DNA of 64,000 nt from Candidatus Zhuqueibacterota bacterium (lineage in GTDB: Bacteria; Zhuqueibacterota; Zhuqueibacteria; Zhuqueibacterales; Geothermadaptataceae), in the NCBI GenBank assembly GCA_015491485.1, contig WFVT01000099.1, positions 1,147-65,146 of the forward strand. The letters run 5' to 3'. Below, piece by piece: positions 6,743-49,113 of the stretch. Numbering within the stretch: position 1 is the stretch's first letter; every line of letters starts with the position of its first letter. The translations under genes were made by a program, and so were the position numbers. The notes beneath the pieces were generated by a model. It searched no databases and had not been told where the DNA came from. It was given only the letters and a program-made list of their open reading frames with translations.

Positions 6743-7215
6743 GGGGTTAACCACGAATATCGCAAGGATTATTTTTAAATTATGTTAATATTCCTGAATG
6801 AATGCCCCATTACCCGGGAATTCTGTCATGACATTCATCCGCAGCACAACGGATTCTTCATCCGACTCTCTTACGAAACATGAGCTTAACCGCCCCCTGC
6901 TCTCTCCATTCATGATCTTCTGCCGTCGGTTGTTTTGTGATGATACCGGTCGATTCCCCTGATTTTTTCGTCGCAATGGCGGCGATAATCTTTGAAATTT
7001 CAGACAGATAAACCACGCTGCACCGGCTGAGGTATATGCTCTGATAGTTTCAATCTTTTTCGATTGAACAGAGTCCGGAGCAGGCTGGAATGGCTTGGGG
7101 ATATGCGGTCTTGCTTTCGCGGCAATAACTCGGTTTTCAGGCAACCATTTTTCTGCTGTGTCGGGCCTGCCCGCACTTTTATAACATGGCTAAGGGGGTT
7201 CAACGAAGGGTAAAT

Positions 7216-12534: not shown

Positions 12535-13323
12535 CTATCTGCGGAGATTTCCGGCTATATTGAGCATTTCATCGGAAGTCCGAATCGCCCGGGAATTAAT
12601 TTCATAAGCACGCTGCGCGACGATTAAGTTGACCATCTCTTCGACGACCTGAACATTCGACATTTCAAGAAATCCCTGACGCAACGTGCCGAAATTTTCC
12701 GTGCCGGGCGTCCCTGTAATGGGCTCTCCCGAAGCCGCCGTCGGCAAATAAATATTGCCGCCGATGCTCTCCAATCCGGCCGGATTCATAAAGCGGACCA
12801 GTTCGATGCGGCCGATTTCCACCGGCGCCACATCGCCGGCCGTCCGGACTGAAACCACGCCGTCCAGACTGATGTGAATTTCCTGAGCGTCCTGCGGAAT
12901 CGTGATTTCCGGCTCCAATACCAGACCGTCAGAGGTGACGATCCGGCCATCTCCCGAAATTTTAAAAGAACCATCCCGGGTGTAACCGAAGGTTCCATCG
13001 TTGCGGATCACCTGGAAAAATCCGTTTCCGTCAATGGCAATATCCAGCGGATTGTCGGTTTGCGCGATATCGCCCTGAAAGAACATCTTTTGCACACTCA
13101 CCGGTTGCGTCCCATGACCGATTTGAATTTCTGTGGGGATATTCACTCCCTGAACGTTCGCGGCGCCGATGGACCGCTGATTTTGATACAGCAAATCCTG
13201 AAACTCCACTTTTGACTTTTTGAATCCCGTGGTGTTGATGTTCGCCAGATTGTTTGAGATGGTATCCACCATCAATTCCTGTGCGAACATCCCGGTTGCA
13301 GCGGTTCTTAAGGCACGTAACAT
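12535..13323 (-). CDS. flgG: Distal rod protein FlgG
   Basis: MLRALRTAATGMFAQELMVDTISNNLANINTTGFKKS ... conserved C-terminus LIVAQRAYEINSRAIRTSDEML. Confidence 0.93.
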   Translation of the reverse strand: MLRALRTAATGMFAQELMVDTISNNLANINTTGFKKSKVEFQDLLYQNQRSIGAANVQGVNIPTEIQIGHGTQPVSVQKMFFQGDIAQTDNPLDIAIDGNGFFQVIRNDGTFGYTRDGSFKISGDGRIVTSDGLVLEPEITIPQDAQEIHISLDGVVSVRTAGDVAPVEIGRIELVRFMNPAGLESIGGNIYLPTAASGEPITGTPGTENFGTLRQGFLEMSNVQVVEEMVNLIVAQRAYEINSRAIRTSDEMLNIAGNLRR

Positions 13324-13373
13324 GGTTCCTGAAACTCCTTTGCGTTTATATACCTGATTTCAATGATTTCACG

Positions 13374-14102
13374 CTAAATCCGCCCCAACTCCGTAACGGC
13401 CTGCCGCAGGGTATCATCCTGTGCTTGAATGGTTTTTTGGTTGTTGGCGAAATCGCGAAGGACGACAATCATGTCCACCATTTCTTCGATGATGTTGACA
13501 TTGGCGCTTTCCAGATACCCCTGACGTACGGGCGCTGCCGCCATTTCCGGCTCCGGGGCATTCGGCCGTCTCATGAACAAATTGTTTCCCCTTTTCATCA
13601 GGGACAAATTGGGATCATCAAAACGGGCGACCAGAAAACGGTTAACCACCTGATTGTTAGCATCCAGGATTTCGCCGTTGTGATTGACCGAAAAGTCACC
13701 ATCGGGCAAAATAATTGGACCGTTTTCACCCAAAACGCGCTGCCCCATGCTGGTCATCAGCTCCCGGTTCTCGTTGATGATAAAATGCCCGTTCCTGGTA
13801 TAAAGCTGTTCGTTTCCACCATCAACAACGAAAAATCCATCGCCTTCAATGGCAAAGTCCAGCAAGGCATCGGTCTTGTATAAGCGCCCCTGCGAAAAAT
13901 CCGTGTAAAATTGCAGTTCTTGTTGCTCTTGCTGCGGATCGTCTCGCCTCACAAAAGCTGCTGAATCCAATGTATTGCGAAAAAAAATTCGATCGCGCTT
14001 AAATCCGGCAGTATTTACATTGGCAAGATTGTTGGAAAGAATTTCCTGCTGAGTTCGGCGAGCGAACATACTCACAGCTGATGTAAAAATCCCTTTGATC
14101 AT
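13374..14102 (-). CDS. flgF: Proximal rod protein FlgF
   Basis: MIKGIFTSAVSMFARRTQQEILSNNLANVNTAGFKRD ... rod-family C-terminus. Position upstream of flgG. Confidence 0.85.
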   Translation of the reverse strand: MIKGIFTSAVSMFARRTQQEILSNNLANVNTAGFKRDRIFFRNTLDSAAFVRRDDPQQEQQELQFYTDFSQGRLYKTDALLDFAIEGDGFFVVDGGNEQLYTRNGHFIINENRELMTSMGQRVLGENGPIILPDGDFSVNHNGEILDANNQVVNRFLVARFDDPNLSLMKRGNNLFMRRPNAPEPEMAAAPVRQGYLESANVNIIEEMVDMIVVLRDFANNQKTIQAQDDTLRQAVTELGRI

Positions 14103-14136
14103 GGCATTCCCTCACATTCTTTTGTCTTTTAGGAAG

Positions 14137-14151
14137 GCAATGGATATGCCA
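14137..14151 (-). promoter_or_regulatory. Sigma-54-type promoter upstream of flgF
   Basis: Minus strand reads TGGCAT-ATCCA-TTGC (GG-N10-GC) about 35 nt upstream of the flgF ATG. The 15-mer is identical to the element at 26955..26969. Confidence 0.7.
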
Positions 14152-14308
14152 GGAAGCACCAATTTATTTTAAGTGTTGTTAACCGCTTAATGGTTGTTTT
14201 TTCAATCGGTTGGGATTTCTTGGGGGAAGGCAAGTCACCTGTGGATTACATATCAGGCGGCAATTTTTACCTGAAGTGGGCGATTGATTCCGAGACGTTT
14301 CTCACGTT

Positions 14309-15376
14309 TTACCGCGATTTATCGAGGTCGATGATCATCTCACCGTCATAGTACTGCTTAAAGACGGGACGCGAAATGTTGCGCATTTTTTGAACATTTT
14401 CCGCGATCCGGCGGGCATTTTCCTGGATATTTTTCAGCTTGGTACGAATGGAATCCGGCAGCAAATGCGCCTCTTCCATAATCAATTCCAGATTTCCAAG
14501 AATGGGGGTGAGCGGATTATTGATTTCATGATTCACGGTCGCCATGGCCTGGACGATAGCGGTCATCCGCTCTTTTTCGATTTTTTCCTGCTCCAATTTT
14601 TTGACCAGAGTGAGATCCTTGACCAGGCCGAGAATTCCGGCAATATGCCCATTCTTGTCCCGGAAAATAGACAGCGACAATTCCACCGGAATCGTTCTCG
14701 AGTCGTGATCCCGTAAAACCGTTTCGATCGTGATCGCTGTGTTATCGTTCTTCAATCGAGAAAGCATGGATTGCAGTTCATGGGGTTGGATATCGAAAAT
14801 ATCAAAAATCAAACGGCCCAGGATACTGGTTTTGGGCGTTTCCAACATTGGATTGCTGCCTTCGGTAAAAAACGATATTCTTCCATCCAATGATGTGGTA
14901 AAAATGATCCCCGGGAAATTTTGCAGAATGTTGCTGAGAAAATCGAGGCTCTCACGCAGATTCTCGATATTTTGTTCCTGGTGGACGTATTTTTCATGAT
15001 TCACCAGGACATTTTCCACCACATTGATCAGTTCATGCTCCCCAAAAGGTTTCTGCAGGTATGCGGAAAGCCCCCGTTCCATGAGCCGCTCGACAAAACT
15101 GCGCTCATGTCCGGCAGCCGTAAGCATCACCACCGGAGTCCGACTCACATCTTTATATTGGGGATCATTCAGCAGCAGGTAGAGAAACTGATCTCCGTTC
15201 ATGCCCGGCATCATGAAATCCAGAAGAATCAGTGCCGGGCGTTCGCTCAAAACCTTCTTTAAGCCTTCCTCTCCGTTATACGCGGAGACGACCTCAAAGC
15301 CGTGTTTCGTAAAATAGTAATGGTTGATCTTATGTTGATTGGCATCATCATCGACGATCAATATCTTTTTCTTCAT
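14309..15376 (-). CDS. Response-regulator receiver + PAS + HisKA/DHp protein lacking a recognisable catalytic ATPase domain
   Basis: REC (KILIVDDD ... LILLDFMMPGMNG ... YLQKPF), PAS-like middle, and an H-box (MATVNHEINNPLTPILGNLELI). The ORF ends ~60 aa after the H-box, with no N/G1/G2 boxes. Confidence 0.8.
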   Translation of the reverse strand: MKKKILIVDDDANQHKINHYYFTKHGFEVVSAYNGEEGLKKVLSERPALILLDFMMPGMNGDQFLYLLLNDPQYKDVSRTPVVMLTAAGHERSFVERLMERGLSAYLQKPFGEHELINVVENVLVNHEKYVHQEQNIENLRESLDFLSNILQNFPGIIFTTSLDGRISFFTEGSNPMLETPKTSILGRLIFDIFDIQPHELQSMLSRLKNDNTAITIETVLRDHDSRTIPVELSLSIFRDKNGHIAGILGLVKDLTLVKKLEQEKIEKERMTAIVQAMATVNHEINNPLTPILGNLELIMEEAHLLPDSIRTKLKNIQENARRIAENVQKMRNISRPVFKQYYDGEMIIDLDKSR

Positions 15377-15881
15377 AGCGAGCGTTGCCGTGGTATCGGT
15401 AGAATAATTTGATAATCGGCTTCAGATTTTCAATGAATTTTCGAATCAGCAGCATTTCCGTCCGTTCAAACGCATGCGGTTTGGTGTGCGCAAAATTGAT
15501 CACACCCACCAGGTCGTCGTGAATCACAATGGGAAGGGACAGGTAGGATCGGATGGGATTGACCCCATGTCGGCTGCCGCGGTGGATATCGGGCAAATAA
15601 ATGGGGCGCTGCTTCTGCGCGACCCAGGCCGACAGGCCGTAGCCATGATCAAAACGCACGCGTTCGATAAAATTCACACCACCGTTGTAATCCGCCACCC
15701 GATGCAGCATTTTCGAATTCCGCAGCACCAGATACAAAGTTGCAGCCTCGAACTCCACCTGTTCGGCAAGTGCACTCAGGCACTCCGTGAATCCTTCCTT
15801 TAGCAAATGATCCATCTCATGCTGTCCGAAGCGCTCTCTACGCTCCTCGAGCCGCTCCCGAATAACTTGAATACGGTCCAT
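15348..15881 (-). CDS. Stand-alone GAF-domain protein
   Basis: 177 aa. LSAWVAQKQRPIYLPDI ... SYLSLPIVIHDDLVGVINFAH is a GAF-like pattern. Overlaps the downstream gene by 29 nt. Confidence 0.7.
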   Translation of the reverse strand: MDRIQVIRERLEERRERFGQHEMDHLLKEGFTECLSALAEQVEFEAATLYLVLRNSKMLHRVADYNGGVNFIERVRFDHGYGLSAWVAQKQRPIYLPDIHRGSRHGVNPIRSYLSLPIVIHDDLVGVINFAHTKPHAFERTEMLLIRKFIENLKPIIKLFYRYHGNARYEEKDIDRR

Positions 15882-15896
15882 GGCTCCTGCTCTTGG

Positions 15897-16232
15897 TTAT
15901 TTGAAACTCGCTATAGCTTCATCTGAACTGTTATGGATATCGAAGAACTTGCTCAATCGGGTGAGCTGAAAAATTTTCGCGACCGCCGGTTGCATATTCG
16001 CCAGTTTGAATTGCGCACGCGACGCCCGCGCATTTTTAAACCCGCTGACCAACACTCCCAATGCCGCACTATCCATATAGGACACTTGCGACATATCGAT
16101 CAGCAGCCGCTTTGTCCCCTTCTGCAATTCATTCTGAATGGTCTGTTTTAAGGTCTCACAGTTGTGAGTATCGATTTCCCCTTCGGGCTTTATAATGGTT
16201 ACATCCTGCTGTTTTTCAATCGTTGGCTCCAT
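15897..16232 (-). CDS. STAS-domain anti-sigma-factor antagonist (RsbV/SpoIIAA-like)
   Basis: 111 aa. LLIDMSQVSYMDSAALGVLVSGFK retains the conserved phosphorylatable Ser in the DS motif. Confidence 0.85.
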   Translation of the reverse strand: MEPTIEKQQDVTIIKPEGEIDTHNCETLKQTIQNELQKGTKRLLIDMSQVSYMDSAALGVLVSGFKNARASRAQFKLANMQPAVAKIFQLTRLSKFFDIHNSSDEAIASFK

Positions 16233-16251
16233 GTTGACCTCGGTCTGTCTG

Positions 16252-16710
16252 TCACGCTTCTTTTTGGCATTGTTTTCGCTTAATCAGTGTCAATACCGTC
16301 CCATCGTCTTGAGAAAAATCAAACTGGACCACATCCATCAGTTTTTCCATCAAAAACAGGCCAAGTCCCCCATCACGCAGTTCATCCAAATCGCGTGGTT
16401 TCAAACGCGTCGGATCGCATTTTTGCCCATAATCTTTAATAATAATCACCAGATCGCCGTTGGCATCGGCGTGAAACTTCACATCGATCCGTCCGTTCTG
16501 ATCCCCCCGATAGGCGTGCTCAATCACATTGGCCAGCGCTTCATTCAGGGCCAATTGCACTTCAAACACATCTTCATCCCCGAAACCCTGCTGCTTGGCA
16601 AAATGCTTGATTTTTTGCCGCAAGTCACGGATGAGTTCATTCCGACTCATCAGCGTAATTTGAAGTTCCTGATTGGAAACTTCGCGAACTTTCAGCGGTT
16701 TATCGCTCAT
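16252..16710 (-). CDS. Anti-sigma factor / serine protein kinase (RsbW/SpoIIAB-like)
   Basis: 152 aa. N-box LNEALANVIEHAY, G1-like IKDYGQKCDP, G2 GGLGLFLMEKLMD. Lies 4 nt downstream of the FlhB-C-like ORF stop. Confidence 0.85.
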   Translation of the reverse strand: MSDKPLKVREVSNQELQITLMSRNELIRDLRQKIKHFAKQQGFGDEDVFEVQLALNEALANVIEHAYRGDQNGRIDVKFHADANGDLVIIIKDYGQKCDPTRLKPRDLDELRDGGLGLFLMEKLMDVVQFDFSQDDGTVLTLIKRKQCQKEA

Positions 16711-16713
16711 GGA

Positions 16714-17004
16714 TCACGTTGCCTTGGTGTCGAATTGACGGCGCTGCTGAAAAACATAGGCTAAAATCTCTGCCACCGCTTCATACAGTTCTTCCGGAAT
16801 CTCACAATGGAGTTCCAACTGCCATAGCTGTTCCGCCAGTAAATCGTCTGCCGTTATGGGGATATCGTGCTGTTCCGCCAGGGCCAAAATGGCGTCAGCG
16901 ATTTTCCCCTGGCCCTTTGCCACTATGACTGGCGCTTGATTTTGCGGTTGATCATACTTCAGGGCAACGGCCGTTTTTCGTTTGTATTTTTCGTGCTTCT
17001 GCAT
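16714..17004 (-). CDS. Soluble FlhB C-terminal-domain paralogue (YlqH/FhlB-like)
   Basis: TAVALKYDQPQNQAPVIVAKGQGKIADAILALAEQHDIPI ... AVAEILAYVF aligns by eye with this window's FlhB (YAVALKYDPGEHTAPVIVAKGERKIAQRIKAIAEEHGVPI ... AVAEILSYIY). ATG 17004 is preferred because the track TTG start overlaps the promoter. Confidence 0.85.
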   Translation of the reverse strand: MQKHEKYKRKTAVALKYDQPQNQAPVIVAKGQGKIADAILALAEQHDIPITADDLLAEQLWQLELHCEIPEELYEAVAEILAYVFQQRRQFDTKAT

Positions 17005-17026
17005 GATTTTCGATGGTTCTCCCAAA

Positions 17027-17052
17027 ATATCGGCGCATCCCCGGCATCTTTA
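17027..17052 (-). promoter_or_regulatory. Sigma-28 (FliA/SigD)-type promoter upstream of the FlhB-C-like/partner-switching operon
   Basis: Minus strand reads TAAA-N14-GCCGATAT. The -10 element equals the Bacillus SigD consensus GCCGATAT and is 7/8 to GCCGATAA. Located in the 88 nt gap after the FliK-like gene. Confidence 0.6.
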
Positions 17053-17113
17053 CGGTTTGTGACGGATTTTAAACATCCTCAGCGAGTTGCCTGGCACAGA
17101 AATTGTTAAACCG

Positions 17114-17758
17114 TTAAAACCCACGGTGTACAATTTGAATCAGCGGAGACGGCACGCCATTTTTACCGGCGAGCCGGGTTTGCAATGCTTGCTGCGATTG
17201 TTTGAGCTGATGAACCCACCGTAAATTGGGACTGGCGATTTGGATTCGCAATCCGCGGGAGGCTGCTTGTAGGTGGACTTCCGTGCGGCCTATCCCCTCG
17301 AAATCGATGAACAGGGTAATCTGTTTAATCGGGCGTCGCTGCTGATTTTTGGCTGATGGATGGTAGCTGACCCTCAAACTGGGTTTGCGGGATTCGGTGG
17401 CGTCGCTGAGGTAAAACACGACCGTTTGGGCGAATTCCTCGGTCACCTGCGCTTCGATTGGCGGGAATCCCCGAATACCGCCGACCGGCTTTTTCTCCGC
17501 CGGGAGCAGCTGCAGGTGCAGGCCGGGGTTTAATCCCGCCACTCGCACCCAAATCCGCTGTCCGGGCTGCAAAGGCAGTTCGCTTTTTGAGAGCAGGCGG
17601 AAAGGACCGATTTGAATCAGGAAGTAATTCCGGTCGATCTGTTTGAGGACGTGACCGGTTTTGACCTGATTCAACTGGAAAAATGATTCAAACCGTGCCT
17701 GCGGAATTTCACGCGCTACAGCACGGCTGAGGAATTGTTGTAATGGGGAAAGCGCCAT
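17114..17758 (-). CDS. Hypothetical protein with a FliK-like (Flg_hook-type) C-terminal pattern
   Basis: 214 aa. ITLFIDFEGIGRTEVHLQAASRGLRIQIASPNLRWVHQLKQSQQALQTRLAGKNG resembles the FliK C-terminal domain pattern (compare IKLRLKPESLGQVIVNIELQDGKMSARMLVES in the true FliK). Confidence 0.5.
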   Translation of the reverse strand: MALSPLQQFLSRAVAREIPQARFESFFQLNQVKTGHVLKQIDRNYFLIQIGPFRLLSKSELPLQPGQRIWVRVAGLNPGLHLQLLPAEKKPVGGIRGFPPIEAQVTEEFAQTVVFYLSDATESRKPSLRVSYHPSAKNQQRRPIKQITLFIDFEGIGRTEVHLQAASRGLRIQIASPNLRWVHQLKQSQQALQTRLAGKNGVPSPLIQIVHRGF

Positions 17759-17771
17759 GGTTCCAGATTAA

Positions 17772-19247
17772 TCAAATTCCGAAATCCAGTGAGGTGTCTT
17801 CATCCCGGGGCGTTGTGAGCATGTTACGGCCAAATCCCAGTATCAGCTCTACTTCGCCCACGCCCATATCGAGTTCACGGGCGATCTGAGTCACCGATTT
17901 GCCCTGCAAAGCCAACTGCAGAACCTGACGCTTGTTGCTGGCGGCATTTTTCAATTCCTGCCGGCGATCGTCGCCCGCCCGTGGTGTGGAAGCCGCCATA
18001 CGCCTCGTCCGGGATTCACGCCCGGCCGTATGCGGAGTGGGGCGTTCCGGCAATACAGCTTCATCGACCAGACGGCGCAGGCGCGTCATCCTCGGGCTCG
18101 GGGCGGAATCCATTGCAAATGGCGTCGCCTCACTTTCATCAATCAAATCGACCCGGGCTTGTTCACCCTTTTCTGAAGCCGTTCGCGTATCATTGATCCC
18201 CGGAATCCGGCGATGCTTGCCTTTTTCGATGAGTTTCAACAAACGTTTGATGCGCTTGGCTTCCCTGCCCTGATTTCGGGGGAGTCGGCGCGGCCGCATG
18301 GCAAGCAACCAGAAAAAGACTCCTGCCAACGCCATCAGCGCCGCAACCACCAAAACCGCCTTCGCCGGAATTCGAGCCAATCCGTCGAAAATTTGCGCAT
18401 ACCATGGCCTGGGCAGCTTCCGGCGCGCCACAATAATGGGCCTGGGGGCCGCTTTCGCCGTTGCTGCTGCTGCGCCGATCGAGTCCGACTGAGCTTCGTT
18501 TACCGAACCGGTTACCGTGTCGGCTGCAGCCGCGATGGCCACGGTATCCATCGCCGCCTGAGCGGTTGTATCCGCCTGCGCAATGAACGTCGGTGCGGCA
18601 GGTTTCTGCTGGCTAAGGCTATCCAGATAAGCCTGGGCTCTGGCGGCCAGGTCGGGGCGTGCATCATGAACGAGGCGCTGAAACGCCGCCCGAGCCGCCG
18701 ATGTATCGCGCCGCCAATAGTAAATTTGCCCCAGCCGCAGATAGGCATTCGACAACCCCGGATTTTGTAAAATGGCGCTACGATACAACTGCTCAGCGCG
18801 GAGTGTATCGCCGCGGCTCAAAGCGCGTCCGGCCATTTCATAACTCTGCACGGCGGATTCAAATTCAAAAATGGGGTAAAAATCAAGGACGATTTTTCGT
18901 CCCGGCGGAAAGTAAAAATGATCGAATTTAAACGACTGCGGCAGGGAAATGGAAAAACGGCTTTGACCATCACCGGAGGTGGTGTGCACATTCAGAGCAA
19001 GAGGCGGCGGAAGAGTTGCCGCGGAATCCAGGGTTGCTGGAATGGACAGAATAACCCGGTTCTCGTCGGTTAAATCCTGAAGCTGATATTCTACATTCCG
19101 GCTCAAATGGAACGACAGTCGCCAGAAGCGGTCATACTCCTGCACCTGAATTTGTTGAATACGGCTTTCGGTTTGAGAGGCCGCAGGTACAGAATACAAT
19201 AACAGGAAAATGAAATTATAAACCCAACGATTCGGTTTTATCGCCAT
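17772..19247 (-). CDS. Membrane-anchored protein: signal peptide, AMIN-like domain, TPR, one TM, cytoplasmic LuxR/GerE-like HTH
   Basis: N-terminal signal (FIFLLLYSVPAASQ). AMIN-like region (IQQIQVQEYDRFWRLSFHLSRNVEYQ ... RVILSIPATL). TPR (AEQLYRSAILQNPGLSNAYLRLGQIYY). TM (AVLVVAALMALAGVFFWLLAM) followed by a basic stretch. C-terminus NKRQVLQLALQGKSVTQIARELDMGVGEVELIL. Confidence 0.7.
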   Translation of the reverse strand: MAIKPNRWVYNFIFLLLYSVPAASQTESRIQQIQVQEYDRFWRLSFHLSRNVEYQLQDLTDENRVILSIPATLDSAATLPPPLALNVHTTSGDGQSRFSISLPQSFKFDHFYFPPGRKIVLDFYPIFEFESAVQSYEMAGRALSRGDTLRAEQLYRSAILQNPGLSNAYLRLGQIYYWRRDTSAARAAFQRLVHDARPDLAARAQAYLDSLSQQKPAAPTFIAQADTTAQAAMDTVAIAAAADTVTGSVNEAQSDSIGAAAATAKAAPRPIIVARRKLPRPWYAQIFDGLARIPAKAVLVVAALMALAGVFFWLLAMRPRRLPRNQGREAKRIKRLLKLIEKGKHRRIPGINDTRTASEKGEQARVDLIDESEATPFAMDSAPSPRMTRLRRLVDEAVLPERPTPHTAGRESRTRRMAASTPRAGDDRRQELKNAASNKRQVLQLALQGKSVTQIARELDMGVGEVELILGFGRNMLTTPRDEDTSLDFGI

Positions 19248-19383
19248 GGTTTCATCCTGAAATATGGGTTACCTGTTTGAGGGAGACGGATTCAATTTTC
19301 TTTGCATCCACAAAGGCAAACGTCTGCAGGAATCTTGAATAAAAGATGAGAGCCGTCTGGAAATTGGAAATGAGGTGGTTCGG

Positions 19384-19710
19384 TCAGGCCTTTAAGTCGA
19401 TCTCAAAACCAAGCTGAGTCATGATTGGTTCGTCTTCATCCGGATCGGTTCGGGCGGGCTGGCTCCGTTTTTTTTCTTTCTCAGCCTGGTCTTGTTGCTG
19501 TTGCCGCTGTTTTTCGTAGGTATCAACGATTTGCTCATCCTGATGAGCAGGTTGAGTGGTCTGCACCTGTTTTTCAGCCGAGTGCTGTGCTATCAACTGC
19601 TGAAATTTCTGCTGGCCTTCCTCTGCCACCTTTTCCGCCTGCTGCACTTTTTCGATGAGAGGCGTTTTGGTAAGCTGATCGTGAAAATCGATGGGCCGAA
19701 TCATGATCAA
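19384..19710 (-). CDS. Small Q/E-rich hypothetical protein downstream of fliA
   Basis: 108 aa (TTG at 19710, ATG at 19704), no recognisable SD. Preceded by a near-consensus sigma-28 promoter. No family recognised. Confidence 0.5.
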   Translation of the reverse strand: MIMIRPIDFHDQLTKTPLIEKVQQAEKVAEEGQQKFQQLIAQHSAEKQVQTTQPAHQDEQIVDTYEKQRQQQQDQAEKEKKRSQPARTDPDEDEPIMTQLGFEIDLKA

Positions 19711-19725
19711 TGCTTTTTATTTTTA

Positions 19726-19753
19726 TTATCGGCCGAAAAAAGACCCGATTTTA
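19726..19753 (-). promoter_or_regulatory. Sigma-28-type promoter
   Basis: Minus strand reads TAAA-N16-GCCGATAA (perfect -10 octamer; AAAA at N15) in the fliA/small-ORF intergenic region. Confidence 0.65.
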
Positions 19754-19796
19754 TTTGACGTTTTCGCAACGTTTGCCGGTAATTACCTCCGCTTGT

Positions 19797-20564
19797 TTAA
19801 TAATTGGTCAATTCTTCCAACAACAGGCTTCGCAGTGTATTTACGGCTTTACTGTGGATCTGAGACACGCGCGATTCGGTTATATTGAGCACCTGCCCGA
19901 TTTCACGCAGGGTCAGCTCTTCATAATAATACAGCGCCATGACGATCTTTTCCTGCTCGGGCAATTTTTCAATGGTTTTCACCAGGAGCCGTTTGATTTC
20001 TTCTTTTTCGATGGAGCTGTACGGGTTATCAGAAGTTGTATTTTCTACCAGATCATACATGGAGGTGGTCTGTTCTCCATCATCGATGCCAGGGCCGTCT
20101 AACGAAACCAGAATGGCATTGTTCACGTCCCGGGTCAGCGCGATCAACTCCTGCTCGCTCATATCCAGACGTTCCATCACTTCCCGTTCACTCACCGCAC
20201 GGCCCAGCTCTTTCTCCATTTCTTGCATGGTGCGATCAAATTTGCGAGCCTTGGATCGCAGGGAACGGGGCGCCCAGTCCAGTTTGCGCAATTCGTCCAG
20301 GATCGCGCCACGAATCCGTGGCAGCACAAAGGTTTCAAATTTGACGCCCATGTTGGGATCGAAACGTTCCAGCGCGCCGATGAGCCCGATCACTCCGGCG
20401 CTGACCAGATCATCATAATCCACCGACGACGGCAGGGTGGCCATCATTTTTCCGGCCACATATTTCACCAGAGGCAGATATTTCAACAGTAACTGTTCCC
20501 GGACTTCAGGCCCTCCGCCGTTCAGGTACTGTTCCCACAGGATTTCTTGCTCGGTGTTCGGCAT
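19797..20564 (-). CDS. fliA: Flagellar sigma factor FliA (sigma-28 / SigD / WhiG family)
   Basis: Regions 2-4 are recognisable: DYDDLVSAGVIGLIGALERFDP ... FETFVLPRIRGAILDELR ... LTLREIGQVLNITESRVSQIHSKAV. Confidence 0.93.
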   Translation of the reverse strand: MPNTEQEILWEQYLNGGGPEVREQLLLKYLPLVKYVAGKMMATLPSSVDYDDLVSAGVIGLIGALERFDPNMGVKFETFVLPRIRGAILDELRKLDWAPRSLRSKARKFDRTMQEMEKELGRAVSEREVMERLDMSEQELIALTRDVNNAILVSLDGPGIDDGEQTTSMYDLVENTTSDNPYSSIEKEEIKRLLVKTIEKLPEQEKIVMALYYYEELTLREIGQVLNITESRVSQIHSKAVNTLRSLLLEELTNY

Positions 20565-20620
20565 GGTGCAGCTCCATTCGTTAGGTGTTTAACTCAAATC
20601 TATAGGCTTATCATTTTGTT

Positions 20621-20896
20621 TTATTCGTTGCCTTTGAAAAAGCCGGAGATGGTTTTTGCTACTCTTTGCTGTTGCTCTTCCCGCTCCCGTCTTTTTTCCT
20701 CTTCCCGTCTTGCCTGTTCCAGCCGGATCATGTGCAATTTGATATGCAAATAAATAATTTGATTGATGGAGATAACCGTATAAAACACAACGAAATACAG
20801 CATGGAACGCATCAGACTCTTGTCAATTGGAACGCCGGAAATGATCTGGAGAAAATACACCAGCACCGCAAGAGCGAGCGATAGTTTGAACGTCAT
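20621..20896 (-). CDS. Small membrane protein (two predicted TM helices, highly charged C-terminal tail)
   Basis: 91 aa, strong SD (GGAGGAGGA) before ATG 20896. Hydrophobic N-terminal two thirds, then RREEEKRREREEQQQR. No family recognised. Confidence 0.6.
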   Translation of the reverse strand: MTFKLSLALAVLVYFLQIISGVPIDKSLMRSMLYFVVFYTVISINQIIYLHIKLHMIRLEQARREEEKRREREEQQQRVAKTISGFFKGNE

Positions 20897-20926
20897 GGCA
20901 TCCTCCTCCAGACTTGCCGTTCCAAA

Positions 20927-21781
20927 CTATGCAACTTCTGCATGCATTTCTCCTTTTGGCCAGACTACGGATGTCAAAAATCGCTTCAAATGGGCTTCGA
21001 TCAGGCGGAACAAGTGCATTTCGGCCGGCCATAAAACCATGGACCGCGTTTCCGCCATTTCTCTCTGAATATCCGGGATCATCGGCGTCCAACCATGCAG
21101 CGCAACCGATTGCCCCAAAAAATGCTCAACAGCCATGTTCAGTTTTCGGTGCAGCAGGCCCGCTTTTTCTTCACTCGGGGTCAGATTCACCCAGAGTCCG
21201 GTTCTGATTTCCGGCTGAGCCTGTTTTATCAATTTGATCAATGCGTAGCTGTTCGAAAAAGAGCCGTAATCCTGTCCAACCACGACGGTCATTAAAGCAC
21301 TGTTTGCGGCAAACCAGCGGTGCATCCCGGCAAAGCCGCCGGGGAGATCAGCAATCAAAATGTCGTACCGCTGCGGCAGTTGTTGCTGGATTTTGTTGAG
21401 CAACCGCTCCCGGGTTTCCTCACTGACCGGTTCGTCGATTTTGGGAAAGAAAACATGAAAGTTGGCACTTATTTCAGAGATGAAATTTCCTATTTCCAAT
21501 ATATCGGCAGCTTGAACCGGAACGTTATGCATCTGCAGGTGGTTGAAATACACGCGCAAACCGGGAAGATGAAAGTCGCCGTCCAGAAGCAGCACCTTCT
21601 TACCCAGCCGCGACAACGTAAGCGCGATCCCGGCGGCGAGCAGCGATTTGCCCGTACCGCCTTTCCCGCTGCAAACACCCCATACGACCGGATTACCCGG
21701 GAACGCGGCCGGGAAAGCCATTTCATGGTTCCGCAATATTTGTCTTAATCCGCTCAACTGATCCATTTGCTCAAATCCCAT
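20927..21781 (-). CDS. flhG: MinD-type ATPase FlhG (FleN/YlxH)
   Basis: Deviant Walker A (GVCSGKGGTGKS). N-terminal MDQLSGLRQIL matches the FlhG DQAxxLR activator-helix motif. Position after flhF. Confidence 0.88.
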   Translation of the reverse strand: MGFEQMDQLSGLRQILRNHEMAFPAAFPGNPVVWGVCSGKGGTGKSLLAAGIALTLSRLGKKVLLLDGDFHLPGLRVYFNHLQMHNVPVQAADILEIGNFISEISANFHVFFPKIDEPVSEETRERLLNKIQQQLPQRYDILIADLPGGFAGMHRWFAANSALMTVVVGQDYGSFSNSYALIKLIKQAQPEIRTGLWVNLTPSEEKAGLLHRKLNMAVEHFLGQSVALHGWTPMIPDIQREMAETRSMVLWPAEMHLFRLIEAHLKRFLTSVVWPKGEMHAEVA

Positions 21782-25031: not shown

Positions 25032-26111
25032 TTAGTTCATGCTGCGTTTCTGGTTTCGCATCGCGTAAATGTAAGACAGAATCTCGGCGACGGCCTGGTA
25101 AGCATCGATAGGAATTTCCTGGCCGATTTCGCCGCGCTTAAACAGCAGTTGCGCCAACGGCGGATCTTCGTAAATCGGCACGCCATGCTCTTCGGCAATG
25201 GCTTTAATGCGCTGAGCAATTTTCCGCTCACCCTTTGCCACAATCACCGGCGCCGTATGTTCGCCGGGATCGTATTTCAACGCCACGGCATAATGCACCG
25301 GGTTGGTGATGACCACATCCGCCTCCGGCACTTCCGCCATCATTCTGCGGCGGGCGGCGGAGCGCTGGACTTCACGGATCCGCGCTTTGATTTGTGGATT
25401 GCCCTCCACCATCTTTTGCTCTTCTTTGGCTTCTTCCTTGGTCATGCGCAGATTTTTCTCAAATTCCCACCGCTGATAACCGTAATCTGCCGCTGCCAGA
25501 ATGAGCAATGCCAGAGCGACTTTAAACATCACCTCGCCGGAGGTCTGCGCCAGAAATTGCAGCAAATAGCCGATGGATTGCTCGGTCATTTGAAAAAAGA
25601 GCTCCACCTTGCTCTGCAAGGTGACATAAATGACCAGGCCGATGATGGTCAATTTGAACAGGTTCTTTAGCAGCTCCACTGCGGACCGCGGCGAAAGCAA
25701 CCGTTTGGCTCCGGCGATCACGTTTAACTTTTCAAATTTTGGCGCCAGCGCCTCCGGCGCCCATAAGAATCCCACCTGCGCTAAATTGGCTGCCAGACCG
25801 ATGAGGCTCACCAACAGCAAAAAAGGGCCCAGCAAATACAGCGTTTTAAATCCGAGGCTGGTGATCAACGCGAACAAGTCTTCTTCATTCACCTGCATCA
25901 AAATGGCTTGTTGCAAATGTTCCCGCCAGAAATACATAATTTTTGCCAGCAGATCGCCGCCGGTGAAAAAGAAGAACGCCGTGCCTGCCAATAGCACCAG
26001 AGCGGTATTCACCTCAGTACTTTTGGCAACCTGCCCCTGCTTTCGGGCTTCACTCCGCTTTCGCGCCGATGGCGCTTCAGTTTTTTCCTGTCCGCTCGGG
26101 TTCTCCGCCAT
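25032..26111 (-). CDS. flhB: Flagellar export switch protein FlhB
   Basis: MAENPSGQEKTEAPSARKRSEARKQGQVAKS N-terminus. The autocleavage-site region reads NPVH (usual NPTH). Confidence 0.95.
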   Translation of the reverse strand: MAENPSGQEKTEAPSARKRSEARKQGQVAKSTEVNTALVLLAGTAFFFFTGGDLLAKIMYFWREHLQQAILMQVNEEDLFALITSLGFKTLYLLGPFLLLVSLIGLAANLAQVGFLWAPEALAPKFEKLNVIAGAKRLLSPRSAVELLKNLFKLTIIGLVIYVTLQSKVELFFQMTEQSIGYLLQFLAQTSGEVMFKVALALLILAAADYGYQRWEFEKNLRMTKEEAKEEQKMVEGNPQIKARIREVQRSAARRRMMAEVPEADVVITNPVHYAVALKYDPGEHTAPVIVAKGERKIAQRIKAIAEEHGVPIYEDPPLAQLLFKRGEIGQEIPIDAYQAVAEILSYIYAMRNQKRSMN

Positions 26112-26953: not shown

Positions 26954-26969
26954 AGCAATGGATATGCCA
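26954..26969 (-). promoter_or_regulatory. Internal sigma-54-type promoter upstream of fliR
   Basis: Minus strand reads TGGCAT-ATCCA-TTGCT, about 65 nt upstream of the fliR ATG. 15/15 identical to the flgF promoter core. Confidence 0.65.
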
Positions 26970-36740: not shown

Positions 36741-38936
36741 TTAAAGAAGTTGCTCAAAATCGGGTTTGGGACGTTCATCGTTTTGCTGTCTTGCATCCCG
36801 CTGCGGCTGTTGCCGCTCACGGCGCTCCTGCTCCGGGAATTGATCCATCGAGCGCCCCGCCGATTCACCTTTTGCCGACTGGGCTGCATTTTGATGGATG
36901 CGAATGTCTAAAGATTCCGCCCGGATGCCTTTATCCGCGAGAGTCTCTTTCAAATGGTCAATATTGCTTTCCAGCACCTGTTTGACCACATGGCTTTCCA
37001 CCAGCATTCGGGCGCTCATTTTGCCATCCTGCAGTTCAATATTCACAATCACCTGCCCCAGGCTCTCGGGTTTGAGCCTCAGCTTGATTGATGACGTTTC
37101 CGGTTGAATCCGGGCGCGGAGCTGCTGTTGAATCTGCTCAAATAAAATCTTTTGTTGTTGCTGTTTCCAGATACGGCCGGCTTGATGCACTCCATTTCGC
37201 GGCTCCACACCGCTCCGCTCCAACACCGTTTCCACCGGCGGCGTACCGGTCCATGCTCCGCGGGAAGACGGTTTGCCGTCCGGCCGCGGCTCCGGTGCCG
37301 TCTCGGAGTCCGGGTGTCGTGATGTGTTGCTCACTTCCGCGCGGACAGGCTGCTCCGCTGCATTCCCTGCGCCCGCGTTTCCACCAGCCCGCAGATTCAG
37401 ATCACCGCTTACCGGCGGCTGTGAATTCCCTTCCGCCTCCCCCGCCATTGATGCTGTGGCGGCGGTCTCCGGCCGGATGCTCATGGCATGTTTTACCCCC
37501 GGTAACGGCTGCCGGACCGGCGATTCGGTACCGGCATGGCTTTTGAAATACATCTGTTTGGCCAGCTCCCGGCGCATGCCTTCAAGGGCTCGCAATTCCG
37601 GTGCGTCATGGTTAGTTGCCTGTCCGGGATTGGAAACGACCATTTCAGCGGAACGATTTGCATGAGCCGCCGCTTTCGTGAGTCCGGTCACTTCGCTGCC
37701 GGCATGCAACGGCTTTTCAACGCCTCCCGAAACAGCGGCGGAGCGCAGTCCATCGCCATCGCCCAAATTCGGAGAGATTTCCACGGCAACGCGCTGCTGC
37801 TCGTTCAAAACCTGTCTCAGACTTTTCTGCCATTCCGCCAGGAGATCACGCAATGGCAAAGCGTCCTGGAACGGCAGCATCTCTGTATTCGCCGAGGTCG
37901 GATTGACAGAGGTGGTTATGTTCAATGACACCACATTCAAGTCTTGCATTTTGGTGATCCATCCTTTTTCCCACTCGGTGGCCTTTGTTCCCTGTGGCGG
38001 CTGCCAATAGACGACCGGCATGGTTTCCATGTTCGCCGGGGCATTCCCGGCAACGTTTACCTGCCATAGAGGTTTGTTATCCGCCAGAAGGGCACGATCG
38101 ATATCCCCGTCTTGCCAGCGTAATGCGCCGTACACCTCATACCATCCGCCTCCGGTTTCCGATTGCATCGCCAGCAAGATTGGGGTCAACGTACCATTAC
38201 CGGATGGGGCCGTGCCGGCGGCGGATTGCTGCTCCTGATTGATTTTGCCTATCAGCGCCTCAAACCGGGAGGCGAATGTCGTTTCGTTGCGTGCGGCAAA
38301 GACGATATTTTTGAGTTCGCGATTTGAAAGAATCAAACGCTCCACCGCGTCTTCACGGCCTGTCGTCGGCTCCGGAGTCATGTCGCGGAGGACATCAGAA
38401 ACGACCCTCAAAAGCGTAAATTGCGCGGAAATGGAACTGTCCGTCGCATCGACCTCTTCCGATCCGGCGTTATTTTCTTCCGGCTCAGCCGCTACCATTG
38501 CAGCCATCCTGTTTTCCGGCTCAACTTCTACCGTTTCTTCAGCTTCCGACATCTGCGGCATGGGACGTACCGGGACGGGGCTCGCTTCGCCAAAATCGAA
38601 TTCCAATTGTTGTGGCGCCGCCTGAGCTAAATCGGCCGACAGGTTGGTGAATTCGGTTTCTGTTTTCTGGCTGGCCTGCCCCATTTCCGGCTGGATCAGG
38701 GCTGTCCGCGGATCCTGTTGAGAACTCGCCGTTTCGCCGGTGGATGCGATTGATGCCGCATTCGTTTTCCGGCTTTGTGAAAGGCGCTGGTTCAGCATCT
38801 GCCGGAACGGCTCATTGCCCGCTTCTTCCGATTTTCGGGGCGCAGCATTCCACAGATTTTGGCCCGAATCCGCACGCGCAAATGCATCTGATTTGGCCAG
38901 CGTCGGCTGATCCAGTAGCATAAATCCCATAGCCAT
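36741..38936 (-). CDS. fliK: Hook-length control protein FliK (long, Pro/Ala/Glu-rich)
   Basis: C-terminal Flg_hook pattern (IKLRLKPESLGQVIVNIELQDGKMSARMLVESHVVKQVLESNIDHLKETLADKGI). ATG 38936 with SD GGAGGT lies directly after the upstream stop. Confidence 0.85.
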   Translation of the reverse strand: MAMGFMLLDQPTLAKSDAFARADSGQNLWNAAPRKSEEAGNEPFRQMLNQRLSQSRKTNAASIASTGETASSQQDPRTALIQPEMGQASQKTETEFTNLSADLAQAAPQQLEFDFGEASPVPVRPMPQMSEAEETVEVEPENRMAAMVAAEPEENNAGSEEVDATDSSISAQFTLLRVVSDVLRDMTPEPTTGREDAVERLILSNRELKNIVFAARNETTFASRFEALIGKINQEQQSAAGTAPSGNGTLTPILLAMQSETGGGWYEVYGALRWQDGDIDRALLADNKPLWQVNVAGNAPANMETMPVVYWQPPQGTKATEWEKGWITKMQDLNVVSLNITTSVNPTSANTEMLPFQDALPLRDLLAEWQKSLRQVLNEQQRVAVEISPNLGDGDGLRSAAVSGGVEKPLHAGSEVTGLTKAAAHANRSAEMVVSNPGQATNHDAPELRALEGMRRELAKQMYFKSHAGTESPVRQPLPGVKHAMSIRPETAATASMAGEAEGNSQPPVSGDLNLRAGGNAGAGNAAEQPVRAEVSNTSRHPDSETAPEPRPDGKPSSRGAWTGTPPVETVLERSGVEPRNGVHQAGRIWKQQQQKILFEQIQQQLRARIQPETSSIKLRLKPESLGQVIVNIELQDGKMSARMLVESHVVKQVLESNIDHLKETLADKGIRAESLDIRIHQNAAQSAKGESAGRSMDQFPEQERRERQQPQRDARQQNDERPKPDFEQLL

Positions 38937-38937
38937 A

Positions 38938-39567
38938 TTAACCTCCATTGGTTTTGATGTTTCTGATTCGGGCCATTTCTTTGGCAACAATGGCCGCGCG
39001 CCGCGGCTCCATGGCATTCAAAACAGTTTGCGCCTTCCGCGCGGAGAGATTCAAAACAATGGATACCAGAAGCTTGACATCCATGTTTTCCGTCACTTTT
39101 TTCAAATTTTCTTCCGATAACCCGGCGATAATATTGGCCAGCAGCTTCAAGCGTTCATCGCCTACACCGGCGAGCTGAGATTGCAGCCGTTCAATTTCCT
39201 GTTCCAGTCGCTTGACCACCCGATCCCGTGAATCGATCTCTTGCTTCAGGCTGTCCGCCATCGCTTGCAGCCGTTCGAGTTCTTTTTGTTGCCGTTGAAT
39301 ATCCTGCTGCAAAATGCTTTCGACGGCTCGCAACGAATCCGCCCGCGCCAGGTCTTCCACCGTTTTTTCCTCGGAAGGATCGACAAATGGATTTTGAAAA
39401 CCAACCAGGGCAATCCACATCAGCGCAAACGTCAAAACGAATGACAGCATGGAGAACAGGATCACGGCGATCGCCGCTTTCACATTGCCTTGCTGGTTGT
39501 GATAGATCCATGTCAGACCCTGGACGCTATTGTTCTGCTTTGCCGGTTTCTGTGTTTTCACGGTCAT
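38938..39567 (-). CDS. YlxF/MotE-like protein (TM + coiled coil + MgtE-N-like C-terminus)
   Basis: TM (AAIAVILFSMLSFVLTFALMWIAL), coiled coil, then LLANIIAGLSEENLKKVTENMDVKLLVSIVLNLSARKAQTVLNAMEPRRAAIVAKEM. Same position as ylxF in the B. subtilis fla operon. Start is uncertain (39567 or upstream). Confidence 0.65.
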   Translation of the reverse strand: MTVKTQKPAKQNNSVQGLTWIYHNQQGNVKAAIAVILFSMLSFVLTFALMWIALVGFQNPFVDPSEEKTVEDLARADSLRAVESILQQDIQRQQKELERLQAMADSLKQEIDSRDRVVKRLEQEIERLQSQLAGVGDERLKLLANIIAGLSEENLKKVTENMDVKLLVSIVLNLSARKAQTVLNAMEPRRAAIVAKEMARIRNIKTNGG

Positions 39568-48244: not shown

Positions 48245-48285
48245 ACGTTCAATCCTCGTCGATGGTTAGGGTCTTTGGTTTACCG

Positions 48286-49095: not shown

Positions 49096-49113
49096 ATGGC
49101 AAATAACCGATAT

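Follow-up and report, generated by a model that had tools for sequence, protein, structure and literature searches.

We report that the flagellar gene cluster of an uncultured hydrothermal-vent bacterium of candidate division KSB1 harbours, in the interval from fliA to flgF, a minus-strand cassette that combines a fliK2-flhX gene pair with a partner-switching module, and that its conservation in seven lineages supports its status as a real flagellum-linked unit. It is tempting to propose, as a preferred yet tentative reading, that the cassette is a lineage-specific accessory regulatory unit of the KSB1 flagellar regulon, in which fliK2-flhX is joined to a partner switch that tunes sigma-28. 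By analogy, late flagellar expression would probably be tuned much as in a known Pseudomonas system, and the cassette is unlikely to replace FlgM as the usual anti-sigma factor.

Gene content and conservation of the cassette

Gene identities in the window, i.e., the whole 64-kb stretch of DNA that was analysed, were assigned by Pfam and NCBIfam profile searches. All seven elements listed in a first-pass annotation of the same DNA were confirmed at the positions given there, in the order FliK-like gene, TAAA-N14-GCCGATAT motif, flhX, RsbW-like Ser kinase, STAS, GAF, and REC-PAS-DHp protein. The cassette lies between what appear to be a flhA-to-fliA transcription unit and a sigma-54-driven flgF operon.

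19797..20564, minus strand: fliA (sigma-28), TIGR02479 275.8 bits
19726-19753, minus strand: second sigma-28 motif, before the small Q-rich ORF
19384..19710, minus strand: small acidic Q-rich ORF, 106-108 aa, directly after fliA
17772..19247, minus strand: TPR protein with DUF6115 (HTH-like) C-terminus, upstream neighbour, 13 nt from fliK2
17114..17758, minus strand: FliK2, short FliK-like protein, 214 aa, C-terminal T3S4/Flg_hook-like domain at residues about 137-199
17027..17052, minus strand: sigma-28-type motif, sequence TAAAGATGCCGGGGATGCGCCGATAT, 23 nt upstream of the flhX ATG
16714..17004, minus strand: FlhX, soluble paralogue of the FlhB C-terminal (post-cleavage) subdomain, 96 aa, Bac_export_2
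16252..16710, minus strand: RsbW/SpoIIAB-like Ser kinase, 152 aa, HATPase_c_2 99.4 bits
15897..16232, minus strand: STAS protein, anti-sigma-antagonist type, 111 aa, STAS 91.6 bits
15348..15881, minus strand: stand-alone GAF protein, 177 aa, GAF_2 48.4 bits
14309..15376, minus strand: REC-PAS-HisKA (DHp) protein, 355 aa, Response_reg 77.5, PAS_9 39.5 and HisKA 43.1 bits
14137..14151, minus strand: sigma-54-type promoter TGGCATATCCATTGC of the flgF operon, marking the 3' boundary of the cassette

Synteny of the cassette extends over seven lineages with FlgK identities as low as 46%, which answers positively the question of neighbourhood conservation raised with the first-pass annotation. RsbW, STAS, GAF and REC proteins share 37-60% identity across lineages and are thus as conserved as FlgF (47-54%); the GAF protein is the most conserved member (92% identity with L007, 52-56% with the divergent lineages). 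L099, a flagellated relative that shares the fliA-to-flgF backbone, lacks the cassette; this points to an accessory rather than a core role. The TPR/DUF6115 gene belongs to this backbone and not to the cassette; homologues occur in L008 and L094-L097, and in L099 as a 432-aa protein.

The kinase and STAS pair

The kinase finds its best NCBIfam match in RsbW (NF003144), where its 77.7 bits stay short of the 145-bit equivalog cut-off. Its N-box (NEAxxNxIxHxY) and G2 box are kept in all seven lineages, and the kinase is, judging from these motifs, probably active. The STAS protein scores 98.7 bits against TIGR00377, above the cut-off of 53.45, and its putative phospho-acceptor Ser55, located in a YMDSAALG motif, is invariant, in agreement with the earlier observation of a retained phosphorylatable Ser. 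In L095, RsbW and STAS are naturally fused, which speaks for an interaction of kinase and substrate.

The REC Asp and the H-box His of the REC-PAS-HisKA protein are visible in its sequence, and no HATPase_c domain, i.e., no catalytic ATPase domain, was matched by Pfam. Architecture and length are the same in all lineages, and the catalytic domain is present in none. A retained H-box His without a catalytic domain, together with the degenerate catalytic domain of another PAS-HisKA protein of the window (53726-55054), would fit a split histidine kinase, with the HATPase_c_2 protein supplying the catalytic domain in trans and STAS acting as regulator instead of substrate. We consider this highly improbable, as HATPase_c_2 kinases with an adjacent Ser-bearing STAS are Ser kinases, to our knowledge in every studied case (RsbW, SpoIIAB, RsbT, BtrW), and as the L095 fusion marks STAS as the partner of the kinase.

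FliK2 and FlhX

FliK2 itself scores 24.5 bits against Flg_hook, under the gathering score of 29.8; nevertheless, 19 of 25 homologues found in an exhaustive search match this family (best E 2.3e-12), which bears out the FliK-like assignment. Its L095 orthologue reaches 28 bits for Flg_hook and 23 bits for HpaP, a profile of FliK2 orthologues matched the ruler protein 5cuk in the PDB with an E of 0.058, and hhalign placed FliK2 on residues 642-696 of the FliK encoded in the window. The soluble FlhB-C paralogue was confirmed as well: FlhX matches Bac_export_2 with 84.3 bits (profile positions 261-335) and TIGR00789 (flhB_rel) with 97.7 bits, begins right after the NPVH cleavage motif of the window FlhB (25032-26111), and is 48% identical to it. 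The ATG at 17004 is the likely start, rather than the TTG at 17025. Between the stop codon of FlhX and the ATG of RsbW lie 3 nt, not 4 nt as first noted, so that the described tight spacing holds; four of the seven lineages show either a 3-nt gap or an overlap between flhX and rsbW.

In L008 and L094, FlhX has degenerated but the RsbW, STAS, GAF and REC-PAS-HisKA proteins are intact. A relay of hook or secretion status through FlhX, as had been hypothesized, can therefore not be essential. L094 also carries a FliK2-FlhX fusion.

Promoter motifs and the question of FlgM

The pattern TAAA-N13-16-GCCGATAW matched twice in 64 kb (0.03 expected), both times in intergenic regions and on the coding strand. 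The FliA-type promoter claimed before flhX is hence present as a motif, which is kept in L001-L007 and absent from L008 and L094-L097; its exact form occurs in only two of the seven lineages, the window species and its 83%-identical relative. The sigma-54-type pattern gave four exact matches (0.58 expected), and the promoter upstream of flgF is conserved in L007, L093-L097 and L099.

FlgM (PF04316) was found neither among 66 small or unassigned ORFs nor among the larger Pfam-scanned ORFs of the window, and no FlgM domain was detected in the syntenic loci of relatives. The small acidic Q-rich ORF after fliA is not FlgM-like. The first-pass annotation was thus right about the missing flgM but not about a near-complete cluster, given that the window contains no flagellin gene (fliC), no fliD and no fliS. 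flgM may sit beside these filament genes.

It had been suggested that partner switching substitutes for FlgM, with the RsbW-like kinase as a direct anti-sigma-28 factor, the STAS protein freeing FliA, and the FlhB-C paralogue and FliK-like protein relaying hook or secretion status. Apart from the kinase, the STAS protein and the lack of a FlgM domain in the window and syntenic loci, this is favoured by FliA being the sole sigma-70-family ORF in the 64-kb window, encoded 3 kb upstream of the cassette on the same strand, with no intrinsic terminators detected in the intergenic gaps between them. The sigma-28 motif before flhX-rsbW could create an autoregulatory loop typical of anti-sigma operons, and the short or overlapping flhX-rsbW junction in four lineages also fits. 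However, flgM is likewise absent from the flagellar cluster of L099, which has no cassette, so that its absence is not tied to the cassette, and the filament genes as possible flgM neighbours lie outside the window. The motif is not kept beyond close relatives, FlhX decays where the switch is intact, and the kinase stays under the RsbW equivalog cut-off. Its closest relatives (32-45% identity) belong to STAS-RsbW-STAS-GAF-PP2C cassettes with no sigma factor nearby. Furthermore, the premise that RsbW-type anti-sigmas target group-3 sigma factors was too narrow, as the binding partner of chlamydial RsbW is sigma-66 (PMC11619594) and that of the HsbR kinase domain is RpoS (PMC6482189).

A further argument against replacement of FlgM comes from published KO annotations: in hydrothermal KSB1 clade II, flgM is reported for 6 of 11 MAGs, against 0 of 15 in flagellated clade IV, with two same-species clade II MAGs disagreeing (0 vs 1) (PMC9012183). 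flgM elsewhere was half of what the first-pass annotation itself had named as speaking against its proposal. The same table lists one hsbA-type STAS in each of the 11 clade II MAGs and none in the 15 of clade IV (PMC9012183); this KO putatively corresponds to the STAS of the cassette. Habitat and NCBI naming, rather than phylogeny, make clade II the most likely placement of the window: its contigs belong to MAGs of hydrothermal-vent origin, one syntenic relative bears the name 'Deferribacteres bacterium', as does clade II member JdFR-76, and the cassette-less relative is named 'Caldithrix sp.' like clade IV genomes. FlgM and the cassette therefore probably co-occur rather than replace each other, and direct anti-sigma-28 action in place of FlgM appears quite improbable. 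Overall, the observations of the first-pass annotation were confirmed and its interpretation was partly supported.

Proposed function

According to our preferred reading, the cassette would have two parts, (a) fliK2-flhX, a known but uncharacterised late flagellar pair, and (b) a four-gene partner-switching/phosphorelay module of RsbW-like kinase, STAS, GAF sensor and REC-PAS-DHp protein. Gene content, intact domains, synteny and promoter motifs are established from the sequences; the protein-protein interactions and the output of the cassette we infer as follows. The REC-PAS-DHp and GAF proteins might take in a phosphorelay or ligand signal; through this signal, the RsbW-like kinase and a PP2C phosphatase from another locus would set the phosphorylation state of STAS (Ser55); and a change of binding partner by STAS and RsbW would tune sigma-28 activity and the motile state. 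As initially stated, PP2C was not found among the window ORFs scanned. Little can be concluded from this absence, given that each KSB1 genome codes for 3-28 RsbU/P-type phosphatases.

An output via FlgM, probably encoded elsewhere, is somewhat more likely than direct FliA sequestration by RsbW. A classical anti-sigma role is nonetheless conceivable because the kinase is a stand-alone RsbW-type protein and the cassette lacks PP2C and Hpt. fliK2-flhX would be co-transcribed late genes, with no essential link to the switch. The tight flhX-rsbW coupling in most lineages is left unexplained by the favoured FlgM-output model.

STAS (in either phospho-state) or free RsbW could instead act on a c-di-GMP enzyme, the export gate (FlhB/FlhX) or the motor, and thereby control secretion or rotation as proposed for BtrW/BtrV of Bordetella type III secretion or HsbA-HsbD. 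Many STAS/RsbW pairs work outside sigma control (PMC11619594, discussion), the closest relatives of the kinase adjoin exopolysaccharide genes without sigma factors, and both the adjacency of flhX and fliK2 and their L094 fusion point to the export apparatus. Yet the cassette contains no candidate effector gene, FlhX is dispensable in two lineages, and the joint presence of both KOs, hsbA and flgM, in clade II speaks for a sigma-28 link, making such a non-sigma output rather unlikely.

Comparison with known systems

Two components have precedents: HptB-HsbR-HsbA as a partner switch in a flagellar cluster and fliK2-flhX as a FliA-dependent pair. In Pseudomonas, hsbAR-hptB is located in the flagellar cluster and unphosphorylated HsbA binds FlgM (PMC6482189; bioRxiv 10.1101/2021.08.29.457346). 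Shared with KSB1 are a STAS protein and RsbW-type kinase inside the flagellar cluster and a REC-linked His-Asp phosphorelay input. The Pseudomonas output is connected to sigma-28, whereas FlgM binding by the KSB1 STAS is our proposal. Moreover, the Pseudomonas kinase forms the third domain of HsbR (REC-PP2C-kinase), with an Hpt as relay protein, whereas the KSB1 kinase stands alone and GAF and REC-PAS-DHp proteins take the place of PP2C/Hpt.

Bacillus RsbW-RsbV-SigB and SpoIIAB-SpoIIAA-SigF share the kinase and STAS families, a phosphorylatable Ser and the RsbW-like G1 and G2 boxes. In contrast, the KSB1 operon has no sigma gene immediately downstream, its locus lacks PP2C, its scores are below equivalog cut-offs and the closest relatives of its kinase are not sigma-linked. 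Those relatives, the STAS-RsbW-STAS-GAF(n)-PP2C cassettes beside exopolysaccharide (Wzy) genes in Chloroflexi, Acidobacteria and other MAGs, have the same kinase-STAS-GAF order, and the GAF domains of the GAF-PP2C proteins after RsbW-STAS are homologous to the cassette GAF. They differ in lacking a flagellar context and in fusing PP2C to GAF domains, whereas KSB1 has a GAF-only protein followed by REC-PAS-DHp.

The FlgM export checkpoint of Salmonella and Bacillus resembles the cassette in its sigma-28-type promoter and in that both would gate sigma-28 late in assembly, but the cassette has no FlgM domain and no evidence points to a secreted cassette protein.

Similar to Pseudomonas putida fliK2-flhX and Helicobacter pylori FlhX (HP1575), a short or atypical Flg_hook FliK-like protein precedes a soluble FlhB-C paralogue in KSB1. 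The P. putida pair is transcribed from a FliA-dependent promoter (bioRxiv 10.1101/2021.08.29.457346). In KSB1, the sigma-28 motif is instead located between the two genes and not upstream of fliK2, and flhX, decayed in two lineages, is translationally coupled to the partner-switching module.

A putative partner-switching cassette in the flagellar gene cluster

ORF listing together with Pfam and NCBIfam scans confirmed the tightly packed minus-strand gene block that the first-pass annotation had described between fliA and flgF. Its genes and bounds are as follows.

Genes from fliA to flgF
19797-20564, minus strand: fliA, upstream bound of the block
19384-19710, minus strand: small Q/E/K-rich ORF after fliA, 106-108 aa, with a sigma-28 motif at 19726-19753
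17772-19247, minus strand: TPR/DUF6115 protein (ORF listing and Pfam/NCBIfam)
17114-17758, minus strand: FliK-like protein (FliK2), 214 aa, sub-threshold Flg_hook match
16714-17004, minus strand: FlhB C-terminal paralogue (FlhX), 96 aa, Bac_export_2
16252-16710, minus strand: HATPase_c_2 kinase, RsbW most similar (Pfam/NCBIfam)
15897-16232, minus strand: STAS protein (Pfam/NCBIfam)
15348-15881, minus strand: GAF protein (Pfam/NCBIfam)
14309-15376, minus strand: REC-PAS-HisKA protein without catalytic domain (Pfam/NCBIfam)
13374-14102, minus strand: flgF, downstream bound of the block

An Rfam scan of positions 13000-21000 gave no match. FlhX covers positions 261-335 of the Bac_export_2 profile, i.e., the FlhB C-terminal subdomain alone without the transmembrane region, and scores 97.7 bits against TIGR00789 (flhB_rel), under the cut-off of 117.35 bits. 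It is 48% identical to the window's own FlhB, and as the alignment begins one residue past the NPVH autocleavage motif, FlhX is the counterpart of the post-cleavage FlhB-CC subdomain. The FliK-like label of FliK2 appears to be supported indirectly. The protein scores 24.5 bits against Flg_hook (gathering score 29.8), and 19 of the 25 homologues retrieved in an exhaustive search match this domain (best E-value 2.3e-12). One orthologue has a weak HpaP match, the orthologue profile matches the ruler protein PscP weakly, and a single-sequence AF2 model was unusable (pLDDT 40.7). At only 214 aa, FliK2 lacks a long N-terminal ruler region and lies outside the hook operon; the genuine FliK (758 aa, 36741-39017, Flg_hook 61.7 bits) adjoins flgD and flgE.

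The kinase is a stand-alone 152-aa protein that matches PF13581 (HATPase_c_2) with 99.4 bits, possesses the N-box and G-boxes, and keeps the motifs NEALANVIEHAY and GGLGLFLM in seven lineages. It falls below the curated equivalog cut-offs for RsbW (NF003144, 77.7 versus 145 bits) and SpoIIAB (TIGR01925, 53.9 versus 135 bits). The STAS gene starts 19 nt downstream, and its product exceeds the TIGR00377 cut-off (98.7 versus 53.45 bits) and has Ser55 within an invariant motif. A HisKA protein without catalytic domain and a separately encoded HATPase could be read as a split histidine kinase; beside the similarity to RsbW and the adjoining STAS protein with its serine, this reading is hardly credible. 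Neither PP2C nor Hpt domains were found in the window ORFs scanned with Pfam. The missing PP2C phosphatase, already remarked on in the first-pass annotation, is unremarkable because each KSB1 genome carries 3-28 rsbU/P genes, besides 4-11 rsbW and 5-13 rsbV genes (PMC9012183).

Conservation and possible origin of the cassette

The window contig was found in several hydrothermal-vent MAGs, and among named homologues the closest belongs to candidate division KSB1. Conserved loci were located from the contigs that carry kinase and FlgK homologues. MAGs with the cassette are GCA_015488025.1, GCA_015485555.1, GCA_054032595.1, GCA_030950365.1, GCA_020633655.1, GCA_008501765.1, and GCA_054015175.1. 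The neighbourhood, on whose conservation the earlier model depended, is indeed conserved: the order FliK2-FlhX-RsbW-STAS-GAF-REC-PAS-HisKA-flgF recurs in seven lineages with FlgK identities down to 46%. Across the divergent lineages, the RsbW, STAS, GAF, and REC proteins are 37-60% identical to those of the window, comparable to FlgF (47-54%), while FlhX is 36-45% identical where intact and FliK2 about 20%. In one such lineage (L094, 1086-1931) a 281-aa fusion joins FliK2 to a degenerate C-terminal segment of FlhX, and in another (L008, 6874-7104) a 76-aa remnant without Bac_export_2 match occupies the FlhX position; the four switch genes are intact in both. In a third (L095, 1584-2390, one MAG) the RsbW-like kinase and the STAS protein form a single 268-aa ORF, which is either a natural fusion or the result of a lost stop codon. 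A more distant flagellated relative (L099), whose FlgK homologues are named 'Caldithrix sp.', has the backbone flhA-flhF-small-fliA-small-432aa-flgF and none of the six cassette genes; the cassette thus represents a clade-specific insertion.

Searching species representatives with the kinase alignment retrieved a single truly orthologous locus and 79 further loci of generic RsbW type, none with flagellar genes. No flagellar cluster or adjacent sigma factor was present at these 79 loci or in metagenomic relatives (37-43% identity). Species representatives included an 83%-identical relative (L012) and not the window's own sequence, though MAGs (GCA_015488025.1 and others) carry it. A metagenome scan with the GAF alignment returned two short contigs only. 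Many kinase relatives, namely L009, L010, L011, and many of the loci numbered L013-L091, are conserved STAS-RsbW-STAS-GAF(n)-SpoIIE(PP2C) cassettes that adjoin Wzy (Wzy_C) and glycosyltransferase genes. In other non-flagellar relatives the RsbW-like domain forms the C-terminal end of a very large ORF (about 1000 aa), with a small REC protein encoded before this ORF and a STAS protein after it. The KSB1 GAF protein shares homology with the GAF part of the PP2C phosphatases in the former cassettes, suggesting descent of the KSB1 cassette from one of them, in the course of which the PP2C domain would have been lost and the REC-PAS-DHp gene acquired.

As the nearest kinase relatives have no adjoining sigma factor, family membership alone implies no anti-sigma function. 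A partner switch with a non-sigma output would fit these relatives, and we regard such an output as unlikely in KSB1. The gene fliA lies 3 kb upstream of the KSB1 kinase gene on the same strand, with four genes between.

Promoters and transcription unit

The sigma-28 pattern TAAA-N14-16-GCCGATAA/T has two matches in the 64 kb of the window versus 0.03 expected. One of them, TAAA-N14-GCCGATAT at 17027-17052, lies upstream of flhX, where a FliA-type promoter had been claimed. The motif is there in the window but is not conserved across orthologous loci: an exact copy is confined to the window species and its 83%-identical relative (L007), and the motif is absent at up to two mismatches from L008 and at up to one mismatch from four other divergent lineages (L094-L097). 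In L008 and L094 the genes abut. No convincing intrinsic terminator was found in the intergenic gaps of the block between fliA and the cassette, which suggests that the cassette is probably the tail of a flhA-fliA unit that in some lineages also has an internal promoter of sigma-28 type. In L097 (20641-20666), a perfect TAAA-N14-GCCGATAA precedes a Maf/MptE-like gene. Within the flgJ 3' end, ahead of flgN, the loci L095 (9245-9271), L096 (9290-9316), and L097 (9295-9321) share a conserved near-consensus GAAA-N15-GCCGATAY; the window has no equivalent sigma-28 motif before flgN.

The sigma-54-type pattern TGGCAY-N5-TTGC has four exact matches in the window versus 0.58 expected, each 30-35 nt upstream of a start codon.

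Sigma-54-type promoters (exact TGGCAY-N5-TTGC)
14137-14151, minus strand: upstream of flgF
26955-26969, minus strand: upstream of fliR
46461-46475, minus strand: upstream of flgB
55296-55310, minus strand: upstream of a PAS-HisKA gene that precedes a sigma-54 activator gene

The flgF and fliR copies are the same 15-mer, TGGCATATCCATTGC. The flgF promoter is kept in L007, L093-L097, and the cassette-less L099, and thereby delimits the cassette's transcription unit on its 3' side. By their promoter motifs, the flagellar genes would follow a hierarchy of sigma-54 then sigma-28, as in Vibrio, Pseudomonas, and Campylobacter.

FlgM and the possible target of the switch

The first-pass annotation proposed that the RsbW-like kinase serves as an anti-FliA factor in place of FlgM. 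Its observation that the window lacks flgM was borne out: PF04316 matched none of the 66 ORFs that were small or unassigned (E ≤ 0.05) and none of the larger ones covered by the Pfam scans, and the FlgM slot upstream of flgN is empty at every locus examined. The window also lacks flagellin, fliD, and fliS, so that part of the regulon is encoded elsewhere, which weakens the inference that FlgM has been replaced. L099 has neither the cassette nor a clustered flgM (compare also L098). A complementary pattern of cassette presence and flgM absence, tested through FlgK homologues and their contexts, thus failed, as cassette-less relatives also have no clustered flgM.

The small ORF after fliA was considered as a hidden FlgM and rejected: Pfam gave nothing at E ≤ 10, a profile search of the PDB gave nothing, and its homologues are clade-restricted and unnamed. 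The second sigma-28-type motif of the window, a perfect TAAA-N16-GCCGATAA, stands in front of this ORF. The family has a conserved N-terminus (RPI) and C-terminus (LGxxIDxKA) and no known domain, and remains an uncharacterised late gene.

In a KO table of KSB1 genomes, flgM (K02398) is present in 6 of 11 clade II MAGs and 0 of 15 clade IV MAGs, hsbA (K20978) is a single-copy gene in all 11 clade II MAGs and is listed for no other genome, and fliA is present in both clades (PMC9012183, Table S7). Clade II corresponds to GTDB order JdFR-76, all public members of which are from hydrothermal vents, and clade IV to order CR04bin15, a marine-sediment group whose members NCBI lists as 'Caldithrix sp.'. 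Reference genomes of clades II and IV include GCA_002898015.1 and GCA_004356825.1. The MAGs with the window sequence are from hydrothermal deposits and L007 is from Arctic vents; L096 is named 'Deferribacteres bacterium', as is JdFR-76, and the L099 homologues bear the clade IV name. On these grounds of habitat and NCBI naming, rather than phylogeny, the window likely belongs to clade II; the accessions of its MAGs do not figure in the tables of PMC9012183, and its protein accessions gave no further indication. If this placement is right, cassette and FlgM co-occur, which further weakens the replacement model, and the one 'hsbA' in each genome probably corresponds to the STAS gene of the cassette.

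The best-supported reading, which we advance tentatively from these comparisons, is that of an accessory partner-switching and phosphorelay cassette that would tune sigma-28-dependent late gene expression, most plausibly via an HsbA-like STAS protein acting on FlgM encoded elsewhere. Indirect evidence that the unphosphorylated STAS protein may bind FlgM comes from the joint occurrence of the hsbA and flgM KOs in clade II. The FlgM-independent checkpoint of the first-pass annotation, drawn from a cluster without flgM, is less likely and, given cassette-less relatives with the same gap, improbable. Its most specific form, in which the kinase directly sequesters FliA, the STAS protein releases it, and FlhX and FliK2 couple the switch to the state of the export gate, is decidedly improbable. 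The kinase domain of HsbR binds RpoS in Pseudomonas aeruginosa (PMC6482189), and a chlamydial RsbW reportedly binds sigma-66 (PMC11619594). Direct binding of FliA would make the KSB1 kinase the first known RsbW-type anti-sigma-28 factor of a flagellated bacterium, and the full relay would be a flagellar checkpoint based on phosphorylation in the cytoplasm, acting alongside FlgM secretion or without it.

Comparison with known systems

To our knowledge, little has been described beyond FlgM export of how bacteria tie sigma-28 activity to assembly or environmental state, and the Pseudomonas HsbA-FlgM switch is the main example we know of; nor do we know of any organism in which the function of the fliK2-flhX pair has been established. 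An uncultured, distantly related phylum has independently placed a putative partner-switching/phosphorelay module in its flagellar cluster. In KSB1 this module adjoins the enigmatic genes fliK2 and flhX, to which it is physically coupled, and therefore provides a second, differently built system for the roles of FlhX and FliK2 and for the input of a switch to sigma-28.

In P. aeruginosa, FliA is freed when HsbA, in its unphosphorylated form, binds FlgM (PMC6482189). In P. putida, the fliK2-flhX operon is FliA-dependent, and its flagellar cluster also contains the partner-switching genes hsbAR-hptB (bioRxiv 10.1101/2021.08.29.457346). Both halves of the KSB1 block thus have precedents. As in HptB-HsbR-HsbA, a STAS protein and an RsbW-type kinase are encoded in the flagellar cluster with a REC-domain input; unlike in HsbR, the KSB1 kinase is not fused to REC and PP2C domains, and no Hpt domain was seen among the scanned window ORFs. 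New in KSB1 is that the two halves are physically joined and the kinase stands alone, that GAF and REC-PAS-DHp proteins replace the PP2C and Hpt input, and that natural fusions occur.

Additional genes in the window

A PAS-HisKA protein (442 aa, 53726-55054, minus strand) is the second DHp protein of the window without recognisable catalytic domain; its C-terminal region has no HATPase_c match, and N and G1 boxes are unclear by eye. It sits upstream of a REC-sigma54-activator-HTH regulator (52251-53699, minus strand), and the pair resembles FlrB/FlrC or FlgS/FlgR. Between flgK and flgL, a 119-aa ORF (6785-7144, minus strand) has no family match, and as no gene was called in the matching gap of L094-L098, it may not be a gene. 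Upstream of flgB (47357-51986, minus strand), a 295-aa protein without family assignment, two single-domain REC (CheY-like) proteins, a 642-aa HEAT-repeat protein, and a 307-aa REC protein may belong to an additional signalling group joined to the flagellar cluster.
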